Shown here: positions 49,731 to 62,890 of the stretch, one piece after another
Layout: every line of letters begins with the position of its first letter
Position numbering within the stretch: position 1 is the stretch's first letter
Source: an uncultured Candidatus Saccharibacteria bacterium
Lineage (GTDB): Bacteria; Patescibacteriota; Minisyncoccia; Sungbacterales; HO2-52-23
Direction of reading: 5' to 3'
NCBI GenBank assembly: GCA_964361695.1
Contig: CAYIBQ010000001.1
Location: forward strand, 1-62,890
DNA: 62,890 bases
Made by a program: the position numbers and the translations under genes
Notes under the pieces: model-generated
Told to the model about the DNA's origin: nothing
Database searches by the model: none
Seen by the model: the letters and a program-made list of their open reading frames with translations, nothing else

Positions 49731-50263
49731 GATATGTGATATAAAGTTTTATTTTTAAAAGGAATGAGCGCCATGATCACGGCTTCGCGGTAATAGCTTT
49801 TGCGGTCAATCGCATTGCCGGTCAAAAGACCAATAGCCCCGTTTTCCTGTTTGGAGTTTACCCGCCCGAATACTATGTCATCCGCTTCTCCCAATTCTTT
49901 GCCCTCGCCGATGAGTGCGGCCACGCGAGGGGGGAGAAAAAATCCGGCACTCCGCGCTTTTCCCTTCCTCCCCACAGCATCCTGGACAGCAACCCACGCA
50001 AACGCTTCCATGCCGTCTTCGTTTGTCGAGACCCCTCCCTCAATACCTATATAAAAGTCGCCCCTAGACGCTGTGGCAACGGCCGCAGAGCGCTGGATAG
50101 CGCCTGCCCTAGTCTCTTCATTACTTCGGGGTTGGTCGCTCACGCCCGATGCTACTGCCATCCCCTCAACAACAAATACTTCTCCGGGAAATATGCGTTC
50201 AAATCCCTCCCGCACGGCTGCGAGCTTGACCGGATTGTGTGATGCCACGATCACTTTTTTCAT
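49727..50263 (-). CDS. Non-canonical purine NTP phosphatase (YjjX/DUF84 family)
   Basis: VASHNPVKLAAV...GVSDQP...ET..GA..R pattern. ~175 aa. 4-nt overlaps with both neighbours. Confidence 0.7.
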   Translation of the reverse strand: MKKVIVASHNPVKLAAVREGFERIFPGEVFVVEGMAVASGVSDQPRSNEETRAGAIQRSAAVATASRGDFYIGIEGGVSTNEDGMEAFAWVAVQDAVGRKGKARSAGFFLPPRVAALIGEGKELGEADDIVFGRVNSKQENGAIGLLTGNAIDRKSYYREAVIMALIPFKNKTLYHIS

Positions 50264-50721
50264 ACCATTGCCGTATCATTCCATCCCCAGTCGCAAAACA
50301 TCCCGCCTTTTCTTGCGTGCTCAATGGCGTGACGGAGATATGCGACGGTATTTTCCGGCAGATTGTCCGCCGGAAACCATCCCACCTCGTCGCACTTTTC
50401 GGGCTCCCTATTGCGCGGCTCTCCGGCGTAGCGCTCTGCAGTAAAGAAAAAATCGCTCCGCGTGCCTGTCTCATCATGCGGCGCGCGGTACATGATATAT
50501 GCGAGCCGCAGATCTTCGGGACGGACAGACAGACCCACCTCTTCCCCGGTCTCGCGCACGACCGCAGAGCAGAGTGACTCACCCGCTTCCACGTGCCCTG
50601 ACGGCACCATATATTTTCCGTCTTCGTATCCGGTCTGGTACCGGCGCGTCAGCAGTATATTCCCTTTCTTATAGAGAAAGAGATAGACAGCCGGCACGGT
50701 CTTAAATCGTTCACGCGCCAT
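50260..50721 (-). CDS. NUDIX hydrolase
   Basis: Nudix box GHVEAGESLCSAVVRETGEEVGL. Confidence 0.85.
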   Translation of the reverse strand: MARERFKTVPAVYLFLYKKGNILLTRRYQTGYEDGKYMVPSGHVEAGESLCSAVVRETGEEVGLSVRPEDLRLAYIMYRAPHDETGTRSDFFFTAERYAGEPRNREPEKCDEVGWFPADNLPENTVAYLRHAIEHARKGGMFCDWGWNDTAMV

Positions 50722-50841
50722 ACCCTATAAGGTGAAATGGGTAAGAATATTTCCAGTATAAGTGGTAAGACACGGAGAAGCAAAACATCTTAATGAATGA
50801 CAAAATAATATACAGGGGTGGAACCCCTGTATTGTTCTGCG

Positions 50842-52629
50842 CTATCCCCTTTTCTTTGCTTTGTTGCGGTCGTTTTCGGTGAGGAATTGTTTGCGGAGAC
50901 GAACGTTTTTGGGTGTAATTTCCAGATACTCGTCCTCGGCCATGACTTCCAGACCACGCTCTATCGTAAGCAGAAGAGGTGGCGTCAACATGATGGACTC
51001 GTCCGAGCCGGAAGCGCGCATGTTGGTGAGCTGTTTTCCCTTGGTCGGATTGACCGACATTTCCTCGCCTTTCGCCGTATTGCCGATCACCATGCCTTCA
51101 TATACTTCCACGCCTGCCGGAATATAAAGCGTGCCGCGGTCCTGCAAATTCCACAGCGAGAAGCCCGCGGCCTTGCCCGGCGCCATGGAAATCATGGATC
51201 CCACATGGCGCTTTTTTATCTCCCCCGCCCACGGGAAAAATCCAATGACGCGGGACGACATGATACCCTCGCCTCTGGTATCAATCATAAACTGATTGCG
51301 GTAGCCGAGCAGTCCGCGCGTGGGGCCGCGGAATGTCAGCCGCACCAGGTCGCCGGAAACGCGCAGATCCTCCACGACAAACCCTCGCGTGCCAAGCCGT
51401 TCAATAATGGCGCCCTGATACGCCGACGGCGTGTCTATGATCACCTCTTCAAACGGCTCGTGTTTTACGCCGTTTTCCTGGCGGATGATGACCTGCGGCT
51501 GGGACACCTGCAGTTCATATCCCTCGCGGCGCATCTGCTCCAGTAGTATAGAGATGTGCAGTTCTCCGCGACCGGACACGGCAAATGTTTCAGCAGAGCC
51601 GAAATCCACTTTCAGTCCCACGTTTACTTCCAATTCGCGTATGAGACGTGCGCGCAGTTCCCGCGACGTGAGAAAGGTTCCCTCTTTGCCTGCAAACGGA
51701 GAATTATTCACCAAAAAATTCAAAACGATCGTGGGCTCGTCCACGGCAATTGCGGGCAATGCGGTACCCGCAGGATCGGTCATGACCGTCTCTCCGATAT
51801 CAATGTCGGGCAGGCCTGCGAGCATGACAATTTCTCCTGCCTCGGCCCGTTCGGTCTCCACCTTTTCCAACCCCTTGAACGTGAAGAGTTTTATGATTTT
51901 TCCCTGGCGCACGTCGCCATTGGGCTTTTTCATATACACGTTTTGCTTGTTTTCCAGCACGCCCTCATACACGCGGCCCACCGCGAGCCGCCCCAGAAAA
52001 TTATCGTATCCCAAATTGAACGGCTGGAACCGGAGTGACTTTTGGATGCTTGCGGCGGGTGCTGGTGCGACGTGCGCGAGCACGGTCTCCAACAGAGGCG
52101 TGAGGTCGGTGGAAGCATCGGTCAGCTTCTTTTTTGCAATGCCTTCGCGTCCGATGGCGTACACCACGGGAAAACTGGCCTGCTCGTCATTGGCTCCCAA
52201 TTCCAGGAACAAATCGAGCACCTGCTCTTCGCACCGATGCGGATCTGCCGCTGGCTTGTCTATTTTATTGATCACTACGATCGGCTTGATACCCAGCTCA
52301 AGAGATTTTTTCAATACAAAGCGCGTCTGGGGCATGGGGCCTTCCTGGGCGTCCACGACAAGAAGCACCGAATCAATCGCGCGCAGAACTCGTTCCACTT
52401 CCGAGCCGAAGTCCGCGTGCCCCGGGGTATCCACGATATTTATTTTCGTGTCTTTGTAGAAAACCGAGGCATTTTTTGAATAAATCGTAATGCCGCGCTC
52501 CAGTTCAAGCGTGTTGGAATCCATAGATACCCCCTCTTGCCCCACGCCCATCTGGCGCATCAGAGCATCGGTCAAGGTGGTCTTGCCGTGGTCTACGTGG
52601 GCGATAATTGCGATGTTGCGAATTTCCAT
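50842..52629 (-). CDS. typA: Translational GTPase TypA/BipA
   Basis: MEIRNIAIIAHVDHGKTTL, DTPGHADF, NKIDK, and an EF-G-like domain order. I start it at the internal ATG 52629, directly after the helicase stop. The track ORF extends to 52734. Confidence 0.9.
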   Translation of the reverse strand: MEIRNIAIIAHVDHGKTTLTDALMRQMGVGQEGVSMDSNTLELERGITIYSKNASVFYKDTKINIVDTPGHADFGSEVERVLRAIDSVLLVVDAQEGPMPQTRFVLKKSLELGIKPIVVINKIDKPAADPHRCEEQVLDLFLELGANDEQASFPVVYAIGREGIAKKKLTDASTDLTPLLETVLAHVAPAPAASIQKSLRFQPFNLGYDNFLGRLAVGRVYEGVLENKQNVYMKKPNGDVRQGKIIKLFTFKGLEKVETERAEAGEIVMLAGLPDIDIGETVMTDPAGTALPAIAVDEPTIVLNFLVNNSPFAGKEGTFLTSRELRARLIRELEVNVGLKVDFGSAETFAVSGRGELHISILLEQMRREGYELQVSQPQVIIRQENGVKHEPFEEVIIDTPSAYQGAIIERLGTRGFVVEDLRVSGDLVRLTFRGPTRGLLGYRNQFMIDTRGEGIMSSRVIGFFPWAGEIKKRHVGSMISMAPGKAAGFSLWNLQDRGTLYIPAGVEVYEGMVIGNTAKGEEMSVNPTKGKQLTNMRASGSDESIMLTPPLLLTIERGLEVMAEDEYLEITPKNVRLRKQFLTENDRNKAKKRG

Positions 52630-52630
52630 A

Positions 52631-53911
52631 TTAGCGCCTGCCCCGCCATGCGGGACGGCTCGCGCCAAACCCACCGCGGCCCCCGCCGCGATTGAACGGA
52701 CGAGCACCGGCGCGGGCGAAAGGACGGGGGGCAAATTCCCGATCCAGACGCATGCCGGGTACAGGCGGGCGCTCGGGCGGCAATTCCGGCAATTGCGACA
52801 CTGGCAATGCTTTTTTGATCAGGCGTTCAATACTGCGGACTTCGTTCCGTTCGTTGGGTGCGGCAAATGATATCGCATGACCACCAGCGCCGGCGCGGCC
52901 TGTGCGGCCGATGCGGTGCACATAGTCGTCCGAACTTGCAGGCAGATCGTAGTTGATGACCAGTTCAATGCCGCGCACGTCAATCCCGCGCGAAGCAATG
53001 TCGGTCGCGACAAGTACCCTATATTTTCCGGAGCGAAATCCATCCAGCGCTTCGCGCCGCTGTGAGAGTGAACGGTTGGAATGAATCTCGGCGCCGGAGT
53101 GTCCCATAGAGCGGATCGCACGCGTGAGGCGCTTGGCCATGTGTTTGGTGCGCGTAAATATGAGGGTACTGCCGCGATAGTCAACGAGCAGTTTGTCCAA
53201 CAGCCGGTTCTTATCATTTTTCGGGATGATGAAAATTTCCTGTGTTACACCCTCCGCCGCAGTGCCCGAGGGCGCTACTTCCACGCGGATGGGCAGTGCC
53301 ATATAGCGCGTGGCCATTTTCATGATCTCGTGGGGCATGGTCGCGGAAAAAAGCATGGTCTGGCGTTCGACAGGCAGTGCCGCAAAGATCTTTTGAATCT
53401 GCGGCGCAAATCCCATATCCAGCATGCGGTCGGCTTCATCCAACACCATGATAGAAGTATCTTTGAGAGAAAGTATTTTTTGTTCCAAGTGGTCAATGAT
53501 GCGGCCGGGCGTGCCGATGACGATGTGCGGATTGCGGCGCAAAGCGCCGATCTGCGGCCCCATGGCGGCACCACCAATCAGGAGTGCGGTACGCAGTCCC
53601 AATGTCCTGCCTATTTTCCGCAGTGATTCGTCCACCTGATGCGCCAGTTCGCGAGTAGGCAAGACCACCAGTCCTTTTCCTTTTATCTGTCCGATGCGCT
53701 GTATCATGGGGACACCAAAAGCCAGTGTCTTGCCCGTGCCCGTCTGGGCAATACCTACGACATCTTTTCCTTCAATCGCGACGGGAATCGCCTGTTCCTG
53801 TATCGGCGTTGGGGTAGTAAAATTGAGAGTATCCAGGATGCTCAAAATCCTCGGCGCGATGCCGAGGCCGTAAAAGCCCGATCCTCCTGGTGTATGGTTA
53901 TGCGGTGTCAT
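52631..53911 (-). CDS. DEAD-box ATP-dependent RNA helicase
   Basis: Q-motif region, AQTGTGKT, VLDEADRM, SAT, HRIGRTGRAG, and an R/G-rich C-terminal tail. Confidence 0.9.
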   Translation of the reverse strand: MTPHNHTPGGSGFYGLGIAPRILSILDTLNFTTPTPIQEQAIPVAIEGKDVVGIAQTGTGKTLAFGVPMIQRIGQIKGKGLVVLPTRELAHQVDESLRKIGRTLGLRTALLIGGAAMGPQIGALRRNPHIVIGTPGRIIDHLEQKILSLKDTSIMVLDEADRMLDMGFAPQIQKIFAALPVERQTMLFSATMPHEIMKMATRYMALPIRVEVAPSGTAAEGVTQEIFIIPKNDKNRLLDKLLVDYRGSTLIFTRTKHMAKRLTRAIRSMGHSGAEIHSNRSLSQRREALDGFRSGKYRVLVATDIASRGIDVRGIELVINYDLPASSDDYVHRIGRTGRAGAGGHAISFAAPNERNEVRSIERLIKKALPVSQLPELPPERPPVPGMRLDREFAPRPFARAGARPFNRGGGRGGFGASRPAWRGRR

Positions 53912-54000
53912 AAGTTCATTCTACCATATCCGCAGAAAAAAATCAAATCCCATGAAAAAGCCGACGGTCTCATAGACGCGCCGGCACACCGATATTCTTG

Positions 54001-54552
54001 CTATACTTTAATATTTTTGAAAGCGGCCCATCCGTCATCCCCGCTTTCGTAGTCCTCCAGAAGTTCTACCTCTGTCTCGTGATCCGGCCCCAAACGCTGA
54101 CACTCGTATACAAAGCGTCGGGCCTCAGCCAGCCGATCGTACACGAGGTGCCATAAAAGGCGGGTGATTCTGTTCGGGTGGTTGGGATCTTGATACGCGA
54201 GCGCCATGCAAGCGAAATATCGCGCGCGAGCTTTATCCAGTTTCCTGATGGAAGCACTGATCGCGTGATGGTACCAAAACCAAATGATTTCGTACCACCA
54301 CATGCGGTCATCTTCATCCAATACGCCTGGGTCTATGGCCTCCAGCGCCTCTCTCGTCTGAACGAGAATGTCTGTCGGGTCATCATAGCACCAAGTATTG
54401 AATAAGAACTTGTCCTGGTCTTTCTGCATGTACGCGTCATGCAGAGCGCGAAAACTATTTACTCCAAAAAGATCAAATGCCTCCTGTGCCGTCTGTGACA
54501 TCTGCACATCCTCCTCCTTGGAGAACTCTGCGAAACATAAAAAACCTAGCAC
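54001..54552 (-). CDS. Hypothetical W/Y/D-rich protein
   Basis: ORF with protein-like composition. The probable true start is MSQTAQEAF (54501). Confidence 0.45.
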   Translation of the reverse strand: MLGFLCFAEFSKEEDVQMSQTAQEAFDLFGVNSFRALHDAYMQKDQDKFLFNTWCYDDPTDILVQTREALEAIDPGVLDEDDRMWWYEIIWFWYHHAISASIRKLDKARARYFACMALAYQDPNHPNRITRLLWHLVYDRLAEARRFVYECQRLGPDHETEVELLEDYESGDDGWAAFKNIKV

Positions 54553-54596
54553 ACATCCGTGCCGTTTTCAAGTCCCCGCAAAAGGACAAAAAAGAT

Positions 54597-54635
54597 AGTA
54601 TACACTAACAAACGATCGTGGTGTTAGTGTATACT
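54597..54635 (-). terminator. 14-bp-stem hairpin, paralogous to the palindrome at 40282..40321
   Basis: AGTATACACTAACA (54597..54610), an 11-nt loop, then TGTTAGTGTATACT (54622..54635). It lies 15 nt downstream of the stop of 54650..55132. It shares the pattern AGATAGTATACACnAACAAACGATCGT with 40278..40305. Confidence 0.55.
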
Positions 54636-54649
54636 TGCAGAATTTCGTC

Positions 54650-55132
54650 CTACTGACGAAGAAAACGTACGGGGATGCGGCGCTCATCCGCGTGTTCGGG
54701 CAGGCCGGATGGATTGTCTTTTTGCAGGACAAGGATGCCTGTCTCCGTCGTGGATGTGGCAAAAGAAAGGTTCGCTTCAAACGGCACAAAGTCGGTGGTC
54801 ATCCATTCTTCCAGCGCTATCGCGGGCGTCACGCCCAGTTCCCTGCCTTCCTCATCCAGGACGCGTACCGGAAATGATGCTTCAAAAAACCAATTTCCAC
54901 GCGCTGTCCCTGCCACGCGCAGAGGGCTTGCAACGACCTCATCGGACAGGGGTGTTGCCACCCGGATCATCGGATCCTCTTCTTTTTCCGTTTCTTGCGG
55001 TGCCTCCACAACAGATGGCGGTTGCTCCGGCACGGGTTCCAATTTCGGTAGTGTCGGAAGCCCGATGAAACTTGCAAGAAACGCTACGACAAAGAGAATG
55101 AGGAAGACCGGAATTATTTTTCGGGATAGCAC
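54650..55132 (-). CDS. Membrane-anchored Gmad2-type immunoglobulin-like domain protein
   Basis: TM anchor, then SPLRVAGTARGNWFFEASFPVRVLDEEG...WMTTDFVPFEANLSF, the Gmad2 pattern. Confidence 0.65.
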   Translation of the reverse strand: MLSRKIIPVFLILFVVAFLASFIGLPTLPKLEPVPEQPPSVVEAPQETEKEEDPMIRVATPLSDEVVASPLRVAGTARGNWFFEASFPVRVLDEEGRELGVTPAIALEEWMTTDFVPFEANLSFATSTTETGILVLQKDNPSGLPEHADERRIPVRFLRQ

Positions 55133-56592
55133 TGCTTGCAGTAGTTATAGTTGTCTGATCCTACCGGACCGGCATATTCGCACTTTGGCGCCGCGGCAAA
55201 GAGAGAGCAATCAACCGCGGCCTTTGTCTGTATTTCCGTCTGGCGTTTGGTTTCGGCTTCGGTCTGCCTCCGTACTTCCTCGTCATACTGACGCTGTTGT
55301 TCTTCCTGCGTCCGCCGCTCCGTCTCCGATTGGTTGCCGACAGACCCGCCATCAGGCAGGCGCGGGGTCTGCTGTGGGGATGGGGTCGCATGATCCCCGC
55401 CACTCCCGGTCGCTTCGCGGATCTGGCGCGCAGTTTCTTCGGCAATACACGCGTTGAGTTTTTCCTGCACGTCTCCGGGTAACGCGCGCTCTCCGCCTTC
55501 TGCGTCTTTCTCTCCCCCACCACTTCTCGCGCCGACTCCCTGAAGACACGCAATCATCTCGCCGCATGATTTTTCTCCGCACGTCCGCAGTTCGGCATCC
55601 GCTTCCGCATTGCCTTTTGCCCGTCCCTCGCCTTCCATCCTTGCCCGCACTTCGGCCGCGACGCCGGAAAATTCTTCCGTCAGCCCATGCTGTTCGGCAA
55701 ATGCCATGCACTCCTGCTGATGCGCAGGATCCGTACAAAATTGCTCGCACATCTGTTTGCTCCTGCACCCGCCAGGGCCCACGCCTTTTGTCTTTCTCGC
55801 CAACGCGGCATCTTCTGCGGAAAGGATGCCTGCGCGCTCGCCAAACGATACACACGATTCCCTGCCTCTGCACTGCCCTGGGGTCTCGCCCCCACGGATG
55901 AGCGGCGCAAATTTCTTGGCTTCCGCTAACTCCTCACCACTCATGATCCCCGCTTTTTCAGCAAACGCAAGACATTCATCTATATGCGCCTGATCGGCGC
56001 AATATGTTTCGCACGCCGCTTTTCTGCCGCAGTTGCCCGGCGTTTTGATGCCACTTTCGATGAGAGGAATAATCTTCTCCGCGGCCATGGCCTCGTCCTC
56101 CGAACAATATGCTTCGCACGCGGCGCGCGTCCGGCACCCCCCGGGCAGAGTCGCACCCTGCGCCAAAAGCCCCGCGAGCTTGCGCCCTTCGGCTATTTCC
56201 TCTGCGGAGCGGAGCCCGTGTTTTTCGGCAAAATCAAGGCACTCGCCAAGGTGCTCCGTATCCTCGCAGTATTGCTCGCATGAGCGCGTATCGCGGCATC
56301 CGCCCGGACCCTCGGCAATACCAAGCCGCACGGCGTACCGCTCGGCTTCTTCCAACTGATCCGGTGGCAATAGGTTGTGCTTTTTTGCAAACCCGATGCA
56401 TGCGCGGACACGCTCTCCATTATCGCGCGCATTGCAATATGTCCGACACGCCGCCTCATCGCGACACCCGCCAAGCTCCGCCACTGGATGGACGATATCC
56501 GCTTTTGACGATGCGTATACCGCATACGCGGACGCAAAAGCAACCAATGCAACGGTAAAAAAGAGAAAAGATCGCTTGTGCCGGACGAACAT
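55114..56592 (-). CDS. Secreted cysteine-rich repeat protein
   Basis: Signal peptide, then about 6 copies of GGCR-x4-C-x2-YC-x6-10-C-x2-FAEKHGL-x-SxEE. The tail is E/R/Q-rich with terminal cysteines. Confidence 0.7.
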   Translation of the reverse strand: MFVRHKRSFLFFTVALVAFASAYAVYASSKADIVHPVAELGGCRDEAACRTYCNARDNGERVRACIGFAKKHNLLPPDQLEEAERYAVRLGIAEGPGGCRDTRSCEQYCEDTEHLGECLDFAEKHGLRSAEEIAEGRKLAGLLAQGATLPGGCRTRAACEAYCSEDEAMAAEKIIPLIESGIKTPGNCGRKAACETYCADQAHIDECLAFAEKAGIMSGEELAEAKKFAPLIRGGETPGQCRGRESCVSFGERAGILSAEDAALARKTKGVGPGGCRSKQMCEQFCTDPAHQQECMAFAEQHGLTEEFSGVAAEVRARMEGEGRAKGNAEADAELRTCGEKSCGEMIACLQGVGARSGGGEKDAEGGERALPGDVQEKLNACIAEETARQIREATGSGGDHATPSPQQTPRLPDGGSVGNQSETERRTQEEQQRQYDEEVRRQTEAETKRQTEIQTKAAVDCSLFAAAPKCEYAGPVGSDNYNYCKQCYPEK

Positions 56593-56594
56593 AT

Positions 56595-56942
56595 TTAAAA
56601 AGGATTTTTATAGGTGTCTTGGTACGGGTTGGTGTCCGCGTCAAAGGGATTGGTGTCCGCCGCAAACGGATTGGTCTCTGGCACGTCATTTTTAAGCGGA
56701 TTTTGCGCGCCCTCAAAAATCTGGGCGCCAAGCCCATTCCTATTTTCAGCAGTGTCCTCGGGCAATGGCTCCCCTGCGCGGCGCATGTACCACCATACTG
56801 CCACAATGACCGCGAGAAGTACGGCTGCCGCGAGCACGAGATTTTTCTTCTGCATCATATAATATATGATAGCGCGCGGCGCCATCTGCGCAAAAAAGTA
56901 ATCCACAGCAGGGCAGGATCTCTGCCTGCGCCCTATCATCAC
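56595..56942 (-). CDS. Small membrane-anchored protein
   Basis: TM segment [18 protein letters not shown]. The start is uncertain: a GTG at 56942 overlapping the upstream stop, or the ATG at 56858 (MMQKKN). Confidence 0.45.
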
Positions 56943-57610
56943 TTCTCTGTTATTTCCACGGTGTTGATAGCGACGTTCTCAATCGGGTGATCGCCACGCG
57001 CCTTGTCCGTCTGCACGGTTTCTATTTTTTCCACCACATCCATGCCCGCGGTTACTCTGCCAAATACCGTGTGCTTACCGTCCAGCCACGGAGTCGCATC
57101 TGCGGTCACAATGAAGAATTGGCTTCCGTTTGTCGCAGGACCCGCATTGGCCATTGCAATGACGCCCTGTACGATTTTGTGCTGGTTAATTTCATCTTTG
57201 AAGGTGTACCCAGGGCCGCCCGTGCCGTCATTGCTCCAGTCGTCATCTTTGCTGTTCGGGTCTCCTCCCTGAATCATGAAGTCCTTGATGACGCGGTGAA
57301 ATCGCGTGCCGTTATAAAATCCTTCGCGCGAAAGTTTTACGAAATTCTCCACCGTCACCGGCGCGTCTTTCGGAAAAAGCTCCAGCGTGACATCGCCATA
57401 ATTTGTTTTGAGTGTTACGTGTATCGTGTCTGCCATATTTTTTTGCGGTGTCTCACCTCCCGTTTGTTGCTGTCCGGCGGGTATTGCCGTCTCCAGTAAG
57501 GGGGTCGGCGGTGACGACGTGCCCCGTGTGTACCAATAATACCATCCGCCGAATCCCACAGCGACGACTGCGGCGGCCAAAAAAATATACGATGTTCTGC
57601 CCTGCATCAT
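56939..57610 (-). CDS. ppiB: Membrane-anchored cyclophilin-type peptidyl-prolyl isomerase
   Basis: [15 protein letters not shown] and [17 protein letters not shown] start it at [16 protein letters not shown] (57610). The longer track ORF (to 57769) adds 53 non-protein-like codons. Confidence 0.85.
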
Positions 57611-57872
57611 GATACGTATCATAATGTTTATCATTACCAGAATCAATACTCGCTCAAACAGGCAGGGAGTCCAAAGATGGGTGGACTTATACACATAGGG
57701 TTGCAAAATATTCCCCATTAGGTAGAATGGGTACAAGTGGCAGTTTGAAAATGCAGATAGTGTCATCAAACTCGTCAGAACTTTGAAATTTGAAATGAAA
57801 GGTGGAAATCCGTGAAGGTATTATGTATTTTACTTGCGGAAACCTCGGTCTTAATAAAAACCGAGAACAACA

Positions 57873-57949
57873 AAATGGCTTTGTTGAGCCAATGAGTCGG
57901 ATTCGCTTCTATGCAATCTTTGCATCTCAAGCCCTTAACAAAGCCATTT
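57873..57949 (+). other. Structured element in the CRISPR leader: 13-bp inverted repeat enclosing a 6-bp hairpin
   Basis: AAATGGCTTTGTT (57873..57885) pairs with AACAAAGCCATTT (57937..57949). Inner hairpin is ATGCAA-tct-TTGCAT (57911..57925). The element ends 5 nt before repeat 1. A further hairpin CTCGGT/ACCGAG lies at 57844..57865. Confidence 0.5.
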
Positions 57950-57954
57950 CCGCA

Positions 57955-58176
57955 GTTTAATACCTCTATAAGATTTCTACTTTTGTAGATTCGCCAATTA
58001 TCTCTAAAAAGCGGTAGTTTAATGCCTCTATAAAATTTCTACTTTTGTAGATACGCTATAAGGGTCGCGTGAACGGACGTTTAATACCTCTATAAGATTT
58101 CTACTTTTGTAGATGCAGCGAAATCAAGAATTTGATTTCTGTTTAATGTCTCTATAAGATTTCTATAAACCCAGTT
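57955..58176 (+). CRISPR. CRISPR mini-array with Cas12a-type repeats (3 intact 36-nt repeats, 1 degenerate terminal repeat, 3 spacers of 26 nt)
   Basis: Repeat 1 57955..57990 and repeat 3 58079..58114 are both GTTTAATACCTCTATAAGATTTCTACTTTTGTAGAT. Repeat 2 58017..58052 has 2 substitutions. Repeat 4 from 58141 matches for 25 nt with 2 substitutions, then diverges. Spacers are 57991..58016, 58053..58078 and 58115..58140. The repeat 3' end forms the TCTAC-TTTT-GTAGA hairpin of the Cas12a crRNA handle. Confidence 0.9.
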
Positions 58177-58252
58177 TATGGACAAAGGCTTTACTTTTGC
58201 CCTTTTTGGAGTATGGTTGAAGGGGTAAAGATAATTCGCCAAAAGAAAATTT

Positions 58253-61200
58253 ATGACTACTAAAATTACCGACTTGCGGGATTTTTATAAAGTACTGAAG
58301 ACAATTACTTTTGAATTGAGAGCTGTTGATCTAAACGATCAAGGCGTTCAATTTCAGAAGACCCTGGATTTTGTCAATCAAGAGTATTTTCCTGTTTCAA
58401 AAAAAAGTTCTGACGGCATAGACGAATTAAAAGAAATACTGCGGTTTGGCTCCGAGCTGGTTGGTCTTTCCGACCGTTTTACCGCCGGCTTGACCCAAAA
58501 ATCTTTTGACTGGTTTGGTTTTGATGCGCGTAAAACCTTGATAGAAAAATTTGATCGGGACAGATATCACTGGCTTAAGAAAAAAAGAAAAATCATCGTG
58601 CCGGTCAAAAACCCCGACACGGGCAGAGCATATCAAAAGCAGTTGATTTTTCAGGATCCGATGCCGCTGTATGCCGTGATTATGATGACGGACGGCACCG
58701 GCTATCAGTTGACTGATACCATAGGCAAGCTGACCGAGAGAATACAATCTTTTCAGAGCAAAATTAAAGGAGATTTATTAAAGATTTATTCCAAATACAC
58801 TGAAACGGAAAAAGTAATCTACTATGAAAGCGGGAAAGTTGTTTTCTACGGTTTTGTCCGTTCATATCTTTCGTTGATTAAAGACCTCATGGCGATTTTT
58901 GATTTGATTGCTGTAAGTCCGAGAGACATCAAGGAATCGCCGAAAAAAGAATGCACCCGAAAAATTCAGAAAGATTTAGAAGCCATAAAAAGTGCGTATC
59001 AAGACCATGCGACAACCATCACGAGTCTCAAAGATGTTATTGATGAAGAAGCCAAGAAACCAATCATTTGGACGACTCTGAACCCGCGGGCGGTAAATAA
59101 GGATCAAAAAAAGATTGAGAAAGAATATGCGTCCGTTTTGGAGATGGAAGAAAAAAAGAAAATGCTGGAATGGGATCTCGATGAGTTAAACAATAAGAAA
59201 TTTGCCGTAGTCCAAGCCTTGGAGAATAAATTAAAAGATTCTATTCCGGAGCTGGAAATTTTGAAGGAAGACATGCAACCGCTTATCAATGTGCTTTTCA
59301 ATAAAAAGAAATATAACTACTCCCCTCTCACCGACGAAGAGAAAGAGAATTTGCGGAAACATACATTTGCAAAAACGATCTTGAAATACATTAAAATTGA
59401 AGGAGTGGTTATAAGCGACAAACAGGACATTGAAAATTACAGACAACCGGGCGAAAGATTGGCGCGGAAAAGAGAAGAATACCGTCAAATAGAACAAGTA
59501 GAAGAATTTAACGCATTCAAAAAGGAATACCGCGATTACGGGGATTTTTGCAAAGAAAAAAAAAGGCAAAGCCATAGCACTTGGCAACCTCAAATCTATC
59601 TATAACGCCATCGGCCAGGAAGTTTTGAGGCAAAAAAAAATGCAGTACTTGAGCATTTTGGTTACGGACAAGGATTATTTTTATTTAGTCCTTATTGATA
59701 AAGATTACAATGAAGAGAAAGATATAGTGGGTGAGTTGCAGAAAAACAGCCAAAACAGCGAATGGCAGATGCTTGAATACCACAAGATCACCTTCAAGGC
59801 GATTGAAAAATTAGCGCTTTTGAATGCGGCGACTTTTGATATCGAAGACCGGCAATTGCAGGACGAGGCAAGGAATTTGTGGAGAAGTTACAAAGAAAAA
59901 TGGTTCAAGGAATATACAAACAATCGCGCTTTACAAGGACTTCATGGCTATCAAAAAGAAGCGAAGAGAGCAGAGCTTCAAAAAACAGAGCTAGTTAAAA
60001 TTATTGATTTTGTTCAAAGGGTGATCGCGAAATTGTCTGACTGCAAGAACTATAATTTTCATTTCAAAAGTCCCAATGAATATCAGACATTGGAAGAGTT
60101 TGCAGATGAAATTGACGCATGCGGCTACGCGAGTAAATGGGTTTCTCTAAACGAAGAAGCGCTTTTTGCAAAAGAAAAAGAACAAGGCGGCAATGTTTTG
60201 GTTTTCAAACTGCATAATAAAGATTTTAGAAAGAGTAAACAGTCGCTTTCGAACGAACGGGATGAAAGTGAAAGAAAGGAAAATTTGTTTACGCGATACT
60301 GGCGTGATGCAATGATGCTTGGGCGGGAAGTAAGAATAACGCCGGAAATTGACATTTTCAAGCGGAAAAAAGAAGAGAGCGGAAGCACGACCAGGACGCT
60401 TACAAACAAGGAAGTCGTGAACAAAGCAAGAAATTACCATGATAAACTTTACGGCGCTTTTGGGGTGGAGTTCTATCCTGCTAAAAAATCTGATTTTGAC
60501 ACCGTGAACAAAAGGGTCATGTTTGACGAGAGTGTGCATTATCTCGGTCTTGATCGTGGAGAAAACTCTCTTGTTTCATGGTGTTTGGTTGACTCAAAGG
60601 GTAAACTTATCAAAAACGGCGACTGGACAATTTTTATGGGTGTGAATTATGCCGAGAAATTAAATTTTACGAAAGATGAGCACGGCAAAAAAGAAGAGTC
60701 CGGTTTTCATAAAGCAAGGATCGTATTACTGGAAAAATATCAAAAAGTTTCAGATTGTAATAATGAAGAAGAGAAAAGAATACTCTTAGAAGAAGCGGAG
60801 AAGCAGGAAAAAGAGTTTGCCATAGATGGGCTTTTGGCGGCAGAGCAAATCAAGAAGGGCTACTGCGGTTATCTCATCAACGAGATCAATAAGATTTTGA
60901 AAGACTATCCGCATACCTATATAGTGCTGGAAGATTTGGATATAAAAGGAAAGGTTAAAGAAGATGAAGACATTACCAATAAAATTCAGAATTTGGAAAA
61001 AACGCTTGGTGGGACGATGTATCAGGCGGTGGAGAATGCCATCGTGAATAAATTTAAGTATTACACGGTGAAGGACAAAAGCGAGTATAAAGGACTGCAA
61101 CTTGTGCCGAATATTGTTAAGGTGGAAGATTTAAGAGTAAGCGCTACGCGAGAGAATGCTCAATCTGGTAAAGTAAACTGGGTGAAATCCAAAGAAAAAA

Positions 61201-61709
61201 TCGGTAACATTCTGTTCGTAGATGAGTGTTTGACTTCGCAAATGTGTCCGAAATGCGGATTCTGCATTTGTGGCGAGGCAAAAGCAGAAAGACTGCCGAA
61301 ATTTGCTTGCCCTCTGTTCCACGAAGACATAAAGGGCGCGTCTCTGGGTTTTAAGAATGAAGGTGGTCAAGACGTTTTGATGCTGAAAGCGAGAGACAAG
61401 ACATTTACAATACGCCATCTTCATGCAGTCAAGCAGACGGAGCTTGATAAAATAAAAAAACTTGAAAATACCAATAGCAAGATTCAAAGCCTCTTGGTCC
61501 TAAGGCTCAAAAGTGAAATGAAAAAAGGATTATATAATTGGGAATCCGTAAAAAAAGACCCGCTGTTTTGCTCGGCGTGCGGATTTAATACGGAAGAATC
61601 TGAAAAATTCGGGCTTCCCACCATTAAATCCGGCGATGACGCCGCCGCTTACAATATCGCCAAAATAGGTTTGGAAGTTTATCAAGCGATGACTCTCAAA
61701 AAACCATGA
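58253..61709 (+). CDS. cas12a: Compact Cas12a-family (Cpf1-like, type V) effector, ~1151 aa if read through. It is interrupted by a frameshift in an A9 run (59556..59564), which gives track ORFs 58253..59605 and 59625..61709.
   Basis: N-terminus YKVLKTITFELRAV (Cas12a LSKTLRFELKPV-like). WED-II-like YLSILVTDKDYFYLVLIDKDY. NYNFHFKSPNEYQTLEEFADEIDACGY...VLVFKLHNKDFRK...ENLFTRYW (Cas12a YQIYNKDF...LHT.YW block). RuvC-I YLGLDRGENSL, RuvC-II YIVLEDLD, RuvC-III SGDDAAAYNIAKIGL. Frame 0 stays open and Cas12a-like upstream of the TTG at 59625, back to the A9 run. Confidence 0.85.
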
Positions 61710-62235
61710 CCGAGGAAATCGCCAAAGTAGTCGCTGATGGAATATATTCCGTTATTGTACCATTCATTGTTGCCGTTATTGCAGCCGTTGTTGCCATTCA
61801 TACGGCAAAAAAAATACCAGAGATGAAATACGAAAAGTGCAGAGTGAATTCGCGCAAAAACTGTATGAAAAACGCCTCGAGCTGTATCCGCGGCTACTGA
61901 ACCTGACGCAAGATGTCGGGAAAGAAACGATGTGGAGGAAAGGCGTCGGGGAGGTGCAGTTGACCGGTGACGATACTTTTCAGATTGCACGGGAAGCGCT
62001 TGAAGGATTGATTGAACTGCATAAAGACACCGTGATTGAACTGGTGCTTTCTGACGGATCATTTAAGAGATTCGAGAATTTAAAAAAAGCGCTGCGCAGT
62101 AATCGGTCACAAGGGAAGAAATACGGGCGGGAGCAGATGGACAATTTTTGGAAACTTCGCGAGGAGTTGCGCGAGTGGTTGCGCAAAGACGTGGGTATTT
62201 ATCACGAGTCGGCGGAGAAACTTGAGTCCAAATAA
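61706..62235 (+). CDS. Cas12a-coupled small membrane protein (single TM helix plus helical cytoplasmic domain), ~176 aa if a frameshift in an A8 run (61807..61814) is corrected
   Basis: The ATG at 61706 overlaps the cas12a TGA (ATGA). Track ORF 61706..61900 gives MTEEIAKVVADGIYSVIVPFIVAVIAAVVAIHTAKK. The frame of ORF 61837..62235 is open upstream through the A8 run (..KKNTRDEIRKVQSEFAQKLYEKRLELYP..). Confidence 0.45.
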
Positions 62236-62311
62236 GATCGGCTTTATGGCGGAGCCGATTTTTCCACCGTATCCTTACTCATCGACGCCATCGTCCGTTC
62301 CTATCCACCGC

Positions 62312-62677
62312 TCACGAGGAGGATAGTCCGGCATTGCTGAAGCGAAGGATCTTTTTCCCCTTGATGATATGGCCGACTACCTCTTCTATTTTTGCGTGCC
62401 GCGCGTCCGCCTCTATCTTTTTTCGCAACTCCTCGGGTATCTGCGGCATATAGTAGCCGAGGGCTTTTCTCATTTTCTGCGGCACGTTGAACCACGTAAA
62501 GACGGCATCATTGACCATGGCTACAAGATCAAGAAAATCCTCTCCTTGTGTGTTGCAACCAGGCAGCTCCAAAATCTTTGCCCAAAATCCGCCTTCCTCC
62601 GCACGGCAAATCGCCACCGAGAGTTTTCGCGGCAGTAGCATGATATGACGCAGGTATTCTTTTTGCGATTTATTCAT
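62312..62677 (-). CDS. HicB-like (UPF0150) antitoxin-family protein
   Basis: AICRAEEGGFWAKILELPGCNTQGEDFLDLVAMVNDAV matches the HicB N-domain pattern. I could not recognise a partner toxin in the remaining 213 nt of the window. Confidence 0.55.
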   Translation of the reverse strand: MNKSQKEYLRHIMLLPRKLSVAICRAEEGGFWAKILELPGCNTQGEDFLDLVAMVNDAVFTWFNVPQKMRKALGYYMPQIPEELRKKIEADARHAKIEEVVGHIIKGKKILRFSNAGLSSS

Positions 62678-62890
62678 GCGGCTTTATGATACGCCGAATT
62701 TCACTATGACGCAACAGTCGGACGTTTCGGCACGATGAGGGCTGCAACGAAATACGCGAGGGGGCCGGGAATGATGCCAGCGCAAGGAAGTCCGTGTGTA
62801 ACTTTCCGCTTCTTAAAGGGATTGTATTATTGTACTACTTACTTTCTAACAATTAAACTGGCAGGGGCATTCTTGATCTCCACCCGTGCA

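Follow-up and report, generated by a model that had tools for sequence, protein, structure and literature searches.

The window analysed here is a whole contig of 62,890 nucleotides (62.9 kb; CAYIBQ010000001.1, assembly GCA_964361695.1), from a host labelled 'Patescibacteria group bacterium' in the NCBI record. Towards its right end lies an AT-rich island with a small CRISPR locus, all elements of which are read on the plus strand: a leader (57799–57954), an array (57955–58176) and a single effector gene of the cas12a4 type (58253–61709). The identity of this effector, the state of its gene and the origin of the locus are considered here. Statements about the absence of cas genes apply to this contig only.

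The effector gene consists of two open reading frames (ORFs), 58253–59605 (450 aa) and 59625–61709 (694 aa). The reading passes from frame 2 to frame 0 by a +1 frameshift at a run of nine adenines, A9 (59556–59564, plus strand), where A8 would be in frame: deletion of one A from this run gives a single ORF of 1151 aa with no internal stop. The length of about 1151 aa and the orientation shared with the array, as given in the initial annotation, are thereby reproduced. The C-terminal ORF is annotated as 'hypothetical protein' in the NCBI record, a label that deserves correction.

In Pfam the effector matches RuvC_1 (E = 2.5e-14) and, at residues 562–625 of the repaired protein (59937–60128), Cpf1_PI-like (PF22222, E = 1e-10), a domain resembling the PI domain that interacts with the protospacer-adjacent motif (PAM); there is also a weak match to the Cas12f-type zinc ribbon (TNB). 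The RuvC catalytic residues D, E and D, noted earlier by eye, are D767 (60552–60554), E893 (60930–60932) and D1128/D1129 (61635–61640), and their columns are conserved across all references in the multiple alignment. Four zinc-ribbon cysteines (C998, C1001, C1106 and C1109, in the form CxxC...CxxC; 61245–61580) are situated between RuvC II and RuvC III. At about residues 511–523, the motif ITFKAIEKLALL stands where Cas12a has LLPGPNKMLPKVF. In this column LbCas12a, MpCas12a, KaCas12a and the Cas12a proteins co-located with relatives of the effector carry LLPGPNKMLPKVF or FFPDQAKMFPKVCF, so the earlier remark that the usual PAM-interacting block LPGxNKMLPK is missing holds, and the motif found in its place fits the pattern of Cas12a2, Cas12a3 and Cas12a4. 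The motifs SGDD-AAYNIAK and, in the PI domain, TF[KR]AxxKL are present as well. Three features looked unusual for Cas12a, namely the small size, the lack of the PAM block and the additional cysteines; they are explained by the fact that the published Cas12a4 sequences have them too. Not every such feature discriminates between clades. The RuvC triad and the Cas12a-type repeat handle are found in Cas12a2, Cas12a3 and Cas12a4 as well as in Cas12a. Cysteines in the CxxC...CxxC arrangement at the zinc-ribbon positions are also seen in some Cas12a proteins of the candidate phyla radiation (CPR), namely KaCas12a and those at L004:3379-7308 and L009:138-4115, hence the zinc ribbon alone cannot separate Cas12a2, Cas12a3 and Cas12a4 from Cas12a.

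The Cas12a3 and Cas12a4 clades were described in January 2026 (Dmytrenko et al., Nature 2026; PMC12851939). Fourteen reference sequences were taken from the sequence file of that paper, and their lengths agree with the paper's table. Among 5.8 billion clustered proteins, the repaired effector has four full-length close homologues of 1056–1141 aa with 39–50% identity, all of them uninterrupted, and the search repeated with the alignment as the query brought up the same five proteins. When 1.84 billion representatives were searched with a profile, 18 proteins, fragments included, scored at least 225 bits, the next ones scoring 165 bits or less. A motif search of the published sequence file gave one entry, ca73Cas12a4, which matches one of the homologues (P0003) and is 42.8% identical to the window protein over the full length; the identity to ca57 and ca70 is 23–27%.

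In a neighbour-joining tree of 38 sequences (894 trimmed columns, 100 bootstrap replicates), Cas12a2, Cas12a3 and Cas12a4 together with the window protein are set apart from Cas12a with a bootstrap of 100%. The clade profiles agree with this: the window protein scores 243 bits with the Cas12a4 profile, 60 bits with Cas12a, 15 bits with Cas12a3, and has no match to Cas12a2. The Cas12a4 profile combined five references of that clade, ApCas12a4 among them, and left out ca73. Sequence comparison thus places the effector in the Cas12a2/Cas12a3/Cas12a4 group, nearest to Cas12a4, and on this basis it is a new member of an already named clade and not an undescribed divergent lineage.

The initial annotation had taken the effector for a Cas12a-like protein of a possibly divergent type V-A-like system. 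A compact true Cas12a of this kind would be a crRNA-guided (CRISPR RNA-guided) cutter of PAM-flanked double-stranded DNA (dsDNA), and several observations fit it. The repeats are of the Cas12a type, Pfam reports RuvC_1 and Cpf1_PI-like, and the stretch between RuvC I and RuvC II, 126 residues, is nearer to that of Cas12a (85–98 residues) than to those of the other Cas12a2, Cas12a3 and Cas12a4 proteins. The PADLOC profiles that match the effector, at up to 159 bits, are all Cas12a. A search of PDB sequences, both with the single protein and with the family profile, likewise gave hits to Cas12a alone, with scores of no more than 76 bits and in the core of the wedge (WED), PI and RuvC-I regions (family-profile positions from about 454 to 919 only), and to neither Cas12a2 nor Cas12a3; since only Cas12a is matched, this search alone cannot place the protein in a clade. 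However, the TIGR04330 (cas_Cpf1) score is 63.5 bits, far below the curated cutoff of 300, with a good match only at residues 460–687, the LPGxNKMLPK block is replaced by the motif of the other three clades, the tree separates the protein from Cas12a with full bootstrap support, and the Cas12a profile gives 60 bits against 243 for Cas12a4. Moreover, relatives of the effector share their loci with a separate canonical Cas12a, an arrangement that fits a paralogue with a different job. We therefore reject the Cas12a-like assignment and regard a true Cas12a as highly improbable. What stands from the alignment by eye to Cas12a is the relatedness in the WED, PI and RuvC regions; the nearest clade is Cas12a4.

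An AlphaFold model of the effector has a predicted local distance difference test (pLDDT) score of 72 and a predicted template-modelling (pTM) score of 0.49. In a Foldseek search against a PDB copy without Cas12a4, the best E-value, 1.2e-22, belongs to Cas12a2 (8d4a), and Cas12a follows at about 1e-20. Overall, the fold matches to Cas12a2, Cas12a and Cas12a3 range from E = 1e-22 to 1e-16 with TM-scores of 0.2–0.3, Cas12a3 being at the top (0.30). Hence the predicted fold, within the quality of the model, confirms the superfamily and does not single out a clade.

Within the group, the window protein belongs to a subclade with a bootstrap of 100%, formed by ca73, the window protein, P0002, P0004, P0005, P0007, P0010, P0012 and P0014. 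Its members are compact between RuvC I and RuvC II: 114–126 residues, with 126 in the window protein. The corresponding stretch is 186–255 residues in the other Cas12a4 proteins (ApCas12a4, ca57, ca70, ca76 and ca106), 211–282 in Cas12a2 and 225–320 in Cas12a3. The window gene and its relatives thus define a well-supported compact subclade without the RuvC I–II insertion.

The frameshift was treated in the initial annotation as something to correct. The C-terminal product, 689 aa if counted from the ATG at 59640, is present on other contigs from the Hainich aquifer, well H51, of which the look-up gave five (L017–L021); these differ in filter fraction, replicate and assembler or pipeline (ENA, the European Nucleotide Archive, and Logan). 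The A9 run is identical in all five. Four of these contigs are 100% identical to the window over 3.6–9.2 kb. The fifth, L017, has 17 differences, all at the contig end and outside the island, and these are therefore uninformative about how selection acts on the effector. Some sequencing platforms are prone to misreading the length of homopolymers, and the gene could in principle be intact in the organism; as the same A9 is reproduced in five further assemblies of such differing provenance, a sequencing or assembly artefact is very unlikely, the least probable of the explanations considered. Therefore the frameshift is not an error to be repaired but a real feature of the DNA. The corrected junction KEKKGKAIALGN (in a longer context, DFCKEKKGKAIALGNLKSIYNAI) aligns column by column and with no gap to the four uninterrupted homologues, and hence A8 is the ancestral state.

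The closest relative, L022:73-3518, is interrupted as well. It has two ORFs of 374 and 774 aa with a frameshift at (GA)6, and removal of one GA unit gives an ORF of 1147 aa. The break falls at about residue 370, some 65 codons upstream of that in the window (residue 437). The identity between the two is 72% for the N-terminal piece and 65% for the C-terminal one. For the repaired genes the ratio of nonsynonymous to synonymous substitution rates (dN/dS) is 0.21 and equal in both halves, so both lineages were under purifying selection during most of their divergence.

Because the closest relative is split as well, a two-piece enzyme might be suspected, in which a 450-aa N-terminal product with the recognition (REC) lobe assembles with a C-terminal product of 689–694 aa carrying the WED, PI, RuvC and zinc-ribbon parts. 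Both ORFs are long and intact, and a GAGG is situated 10 nt upstream of the ATG at 59640. But the break points differ between the window (residue 437) and L022 (about 370), hence there is no conserved split point. Further, residues 438–462 would be lost together with ten invariant positions (L443, G444, Y450, N451, A452, E456, V457, R459, Q460 and K461), M463 is a conserved internal residue and not a dedicated start, and the more distant relatives are all single polypeptides. We give this arrangement a very small chance.

A more serious alternative is that the locus is phase-variable, the A run and the (GA)n repeat acting as reversible switches of an abortive-infection effector that is costly to the cell, or slippage of the polymerase at A9 providing a low, tolerated dose of the protein. 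Transcriptional slippage and slipped-strand mutation are known to occur at runs of nine or more A. Each of the two closest lineages has exactly one interruption, and the simple repeat involved differs between them (A9 here, (GA)6 in L022), the remainder of both genes is intact with a dN/dS of 0.21, and A9 is fixed across the five assemblies. However, the same five of five assemblies are off-length, and no A8 variant was seen among them. Simple repeats also attract ordinary first-hit inactivating mutations, and a hit of this kind is unsurprising in an AT-rich gene with several A7–A9 runs. The locus shows other signs of decay, too: the adaptation genes are absent, there are just three spacers, and an insertion sequence (IS) element is adjacent. 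Reversible switching is the main alternative, though a less likely one. Recent loss of function is the most likely state of the gene here, a costly suicide effector having been inactivated independently in the stand-alone copies of the two lineages: inactivation is favoured because all assemblies are off-length, the partner genes are lost, and the gene has many A7–A9 runs, where the first hits are expected.

The array that precedes the gene has four repeat copies with a period of 62 nt. Three of them, 57955–57990, 58017–58052 and 58079–58114, are intact 36-nt repeats GTTTAATRCCTCTATAARATTTCTACTTTTGTAGAT, and they delimit three spacers of 26 nt each (57991–58016, 58053–58078 and 58115–58140). 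The 3' end of the repeat is AGATTTCTACTTTTGTAGAT, also written TCTACTTTTGTAGAT, that is, a handle of the Cas12a type. The fourth, terminal copy (58141–58176) is degenerate: its 5' part is kept, while the TCTAC-TTTT-GTAGAT hairpin is gone. Hence of the four-repeat array with a Cas12a handle described initially, the period, the orientation and the handle are retained, but one of the four repeats has lost its hairpin. Since the repeats are read on the plus strand, like the effector gene, the array precedes the effector and is directed towards it, as had been proposed. Folding of the whole repeat as RNA favours an alternative pairing and is uninformative.

The leader is homologous to type V-A leaders, and a search with the repeat led to related arrays in other CPR genomes. 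Over 331 nt, the leader together with the first repeats (57799–58114) shows 81.6% identity to its counterpart in L015, a canonical cas12a-cas4-cas1-cas2 locus of a Saccharibacteria metagenome-assembled genome (MAG) in which the leader and array follow cas2; the repeat itself coincides with that of L015 in 36 of 36 nt. The identity of the leader and repeats to a Ryanbacteria array, L012, is 76%.

The 3' portion of the repeat (27 nt) occurs in single copy in L014 (Sungiibacteriota, JACQRW010000006.1), L010, L011 and L013, the hosts being other CPR MAG contigs and one MAG labelled Gammaproteobacteria. The fetched flanks of these copies contain no Cas gene, and the copies may be solitary repeats or array ends.

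The loci of the relatives point to the origin of the island. Three of the four close homologues directly adjoin a canonical Cas12a of 1298–1325 aa with REC1, PI and RuvC Pfam domains (two of the three also have the Nuc domain), and each of the four has at least one of cas4, cas1 and cas2 nearby. Such a layout is characteristic of the Cas12a paralogues reported by the Beisel and Jackson groups, who described first Cas12a2 and then Cas12a3 and Cas12a4. In L022, cas2 lies directly downstream of the effector gene, at the contig end. Where arrays are present in the homologues' loci, their repeats end in AAATTTCTACTTT[TC]GTAGAT. In the window, tblastn with type V-A Cas1, Cas2, Cas4 and Cas12a and with NYN-domain proteins as queries found no cas1, cas2, cas4 or second cas12a, and a sister contig extending 695 nt past the window end adds only an IS630-type transposase; this bears out the earlier statement that no adaptation genes are visible.

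The drop in base composition described earlier is also confirmed by measurement. The GC fraction falls from 0.52–0.61 over 52000–57600 to 0.34–0.44 over 57600–61800 and returns to about 0.5 past 62200. The island proper (57623–62235) has 39.8% GC, the left flank (50000–57622) 55.0% and the whole window 52.7%. The related loci have 27–36% GC, to be compared with 39.8% in the island and 53–55% in its surroundings. The low GC content resembling that of the relatives' loci, the identity of the leader and array to a Saccharibacteria type V-A locus and the IS630-type neighbour all agree with horizontal acquisition, as suggested in the initial annotation, and a leader, an array and one effector without adaptation genes on the contig make the locus minimal indeed. 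We take the window locus to be a piece transferred from a V-A-type locus, of which just the array and the a4 paralogue are left, and it is more reduced than any other locus compared. Since the contig lacks adaptation genes, inheritance is the probable source of the three spacers, rather than acquisition here. Relatives of the effector were not found in viral contigs, and a metagenome scan for them yielded one new partial locus, L027.

An NYN-domain gene (PF01936, a predicted RNase) adjoins the ca73-subclade cas12a4 genes of P0004, P0005 and P0007, in loci L005–L008, L023 and L024 (for example, L008:5467-5973 and L006:2624-3295); the window has no such gene. The NYN gene is a possible accessory of the ca73 subclade. 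In L023:2126-12388, P0007 is preceded by a tape-measure gene (TMP_3, 74 bits), unannotated ORFs, a solitary Cas12a-type repeat and the NYN gene, which makes a phage or prophage a possible carrier of this Cas12a4.

The explanation that we favour, and consider likely, is that the locus derives from a type V-A system by horizontal acquisition and reduction, and that it is composed of a leader, an array with three spacers and a single Cas12a4-clade effector, whose gene is held off by A9. By analogy with ApCas12a4, Cas12a2 and Cas12a3, a functional copy would work as follows. The leader would drive transcription of the array towards the effector gene, and the effector would cut the pre-crRNA upstream of the UCUAC-UUUU-GUAGAU hairpin. 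The complex with crRNA would bind complementary RNA, not DNA, with a purine-rich 3' flank read by the PI domain. Target binding would open the RuvC site, and both the target and bystander RNA would be cleaved. The infected cell would then be arrested in growth (abortive infection) and the invader DNA would not be cleared; no SOS response is expected, because DNA would not be cut. Full-length protein would arise only from revertants or by slippage of the polymerase or ribosome. The transfer of function from ApCas12a4 is a reasonable but tentative extrapolation.

Several observations weigh against this explanation. The gene as present cannot encode the full protein. The identity of the window protein to ApCas12a4 is low, 28% over 714 residues (E = 1e-38), and the node uniting all Cas12a4 references with the group of the window protein has a bootstrap of 57%. 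The ca73 subclade is devoid of most of the insertion domain between RuvC I and RuvC II, and hence its choice of substrate may differ. ca73 appears in the list and the FASTA file of the paper only (PMC12851939). Finally, no protospacers were found, either as exact matches of the first 20 nt of each spacer in viral contigs or with up to six mismatches in the window and the fetched loci.

An extended version of the favoured explanation is that the activated RuvC site of the compact ca73 subclade has a substrate preference unlike those of ApCas12a4, Cas12a2 and Cas12a3, so that the subclade would in effect be a fifth functional type, and that stand-alone copies are gated by repeat slippage. We consider it rather unlikely; if true, it would mean phase variation of an abortive-infection CRISPR effector. 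Regardless of this, the locus adds a member from groundwater Patescibacteria to a clade named only in 2026. It also illustrates one possible course after transfer: cas12a, the partner gene, has been lost together with the adaptation genes, a mini-array remains beside the effector, and a simple repeat is the site at which the effector has been inactivated or is switched. For studying the role of the insertion in collateral substrate choice, and for small RNA-sensing tools, either the 1151-aa protein after repair or the intact P0002–P0005 would be reasonable candidates. None of these findings overturns the current understanding.

The island is bounded on the left by the start of ppiB (56939–57622, minus strand), a cyclophilin-type gene (Pfam Pro_isomerase, 184 bits). 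Downstream of the effector there are two small ORFs, both on the plus strand. The first, 61706–61900, encodes 64 aa with a hydrophobic N-terminal stretch, shares ATGA with the effector stop, in agreement with the single small coupled gene noted earlier, and is predicted as a gene in those Hainich assemblies that cover it. The second, 61837–62235, encodes 132 aa from a GTG start, or 91–93 aa from about 61954 or 61960 according to gene callers, and its end coincides with the right boundary of the low-GC island. Neither has a match in Pfam, NCBIfam or PADLOC; the former has no counterpart beside any effector homologue, and the latter none in the related loci. Hence we do not count these ORFs into the system, and their role as conserved accessory genes was rejected.

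To the right of the island, the nearest gene (62312–62677, minus strand, 121 aa) has a weak, sub-cutoff match to a HicB-like antitoxin (E = 0.033). Directly past position 62890, the sister contig carries the IS630-type transposase on the minus strand (L020:3573-4269; DDE_3, 91.7 bits, and HTH_33, 32 bits), itself broken into two ORFs at an A8 run. The window contig and three of the five Hainich contigs end at 62890, and the remaining two at 62865, which suggests that the element is repeated and halts assembly.

An imperfect direct repeat, 57667–57690 and 62224–62247, with a GAGTCCAAA core and 17 of 24 matching positions, lies almost precisely at the two edges of the low-GC island. An exact core of 9 nt is no longer than chance would give in such a region, and no conclusion on the island boundary was drawn from it. 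There is no tRNA gene near the island that could mark an integration site. A scan for promoters and terminators gave no signal above the shuffled expectation, and an Rfam search returned nothing meaningful.

Among the named systems, the closest to the window protein is ca73Cas12a4, from contig Ga0209097_10004342 (Supplementary Data 1 of Dmytrenko et al.; PMC12851939). The two proteins share the zinc ribbon, the PI motif and the N-terminal KTITFEL block, and have similarly short RuvC I–II linkers (121 residues in ca73, 126 here). However, the ca73 gene is uninterrupted and located between a canonical cas12a and cas4, whereas the window gene is frameshifted and stands alone with a mini-array, with no cas12a, cas4, cas1 or cas2 on the contig.

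ApCas12a4 is the sole biochemically characterised Cas12a4: it is activated by RNA, cleaves RNA only, causes growth arrest without an SOS response and prefers a purine-rich protospacer-flanking sequence (PFS) (PMC12851939). The RuvC triad, the zinc ribbon, SGDD-AAYNIAK and the PI motif TFxAxxKLAL are found in the window protein as well, and by analogy RNA-activated, RNA-only cleavage and growth arrest may be expected of it too. The proteins differ in that the RuvC I–II stretch of ApCas12a4 is 186 residues long with a beta-rich insertion that is missing from the 126 residues here, whereas the zinc-ribbon region between RuvC II and RuvC III is 235 residues in the window protein and 141 in ApCas12a4.

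Cas12a2 at times co-occurs with Cas12a, uses the crRNA of the latter and targets RNA; its zinc ribbon replaces the Nuc domain, its PI domain reads the PFS on RNA, and an insertion domain takes the place of the bridge helix (PMC9849127). The aromatic clamps that it uses for shredding dsDNA are poorly conserved in Cas12a4 (PMC12851939). SuCas12a2 (PDB 8D49, 8D4A, 8D4B) resembles the window protein in giving the best Foldseek E-value (8d4a), in being a paralogue of Cas12a and in having a zinc ribbon. But it yields no PDB sequence match even at E = 10 with the family profile, the Cas12a2 profile has no match either, and its RuvC I–II insertion is much longer (211–282 residues against 126).

Cas12a3 has a distinct tRNA-loading domain (PMC12851939). 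Ba1Cas12a3 (PDB 9HLX, 21WE) belongs to the same supergroup as the window protein and gives the highest TM-scores to the model (0.30), while the Cas12a3 profile reaches just 15 bits and the RuvC I–II stretch of 225–320 residues in Cas12a3 contains an insertion that the window protein does not have. Finally, Cas12a (Cpf1) has the same repeat and handle as the window, a homologous leader and an alignable crRNA-processing region, but differs in the REC lobe and in the PAM-reading LPGxNKMLPK block, which is absent from the window protein.

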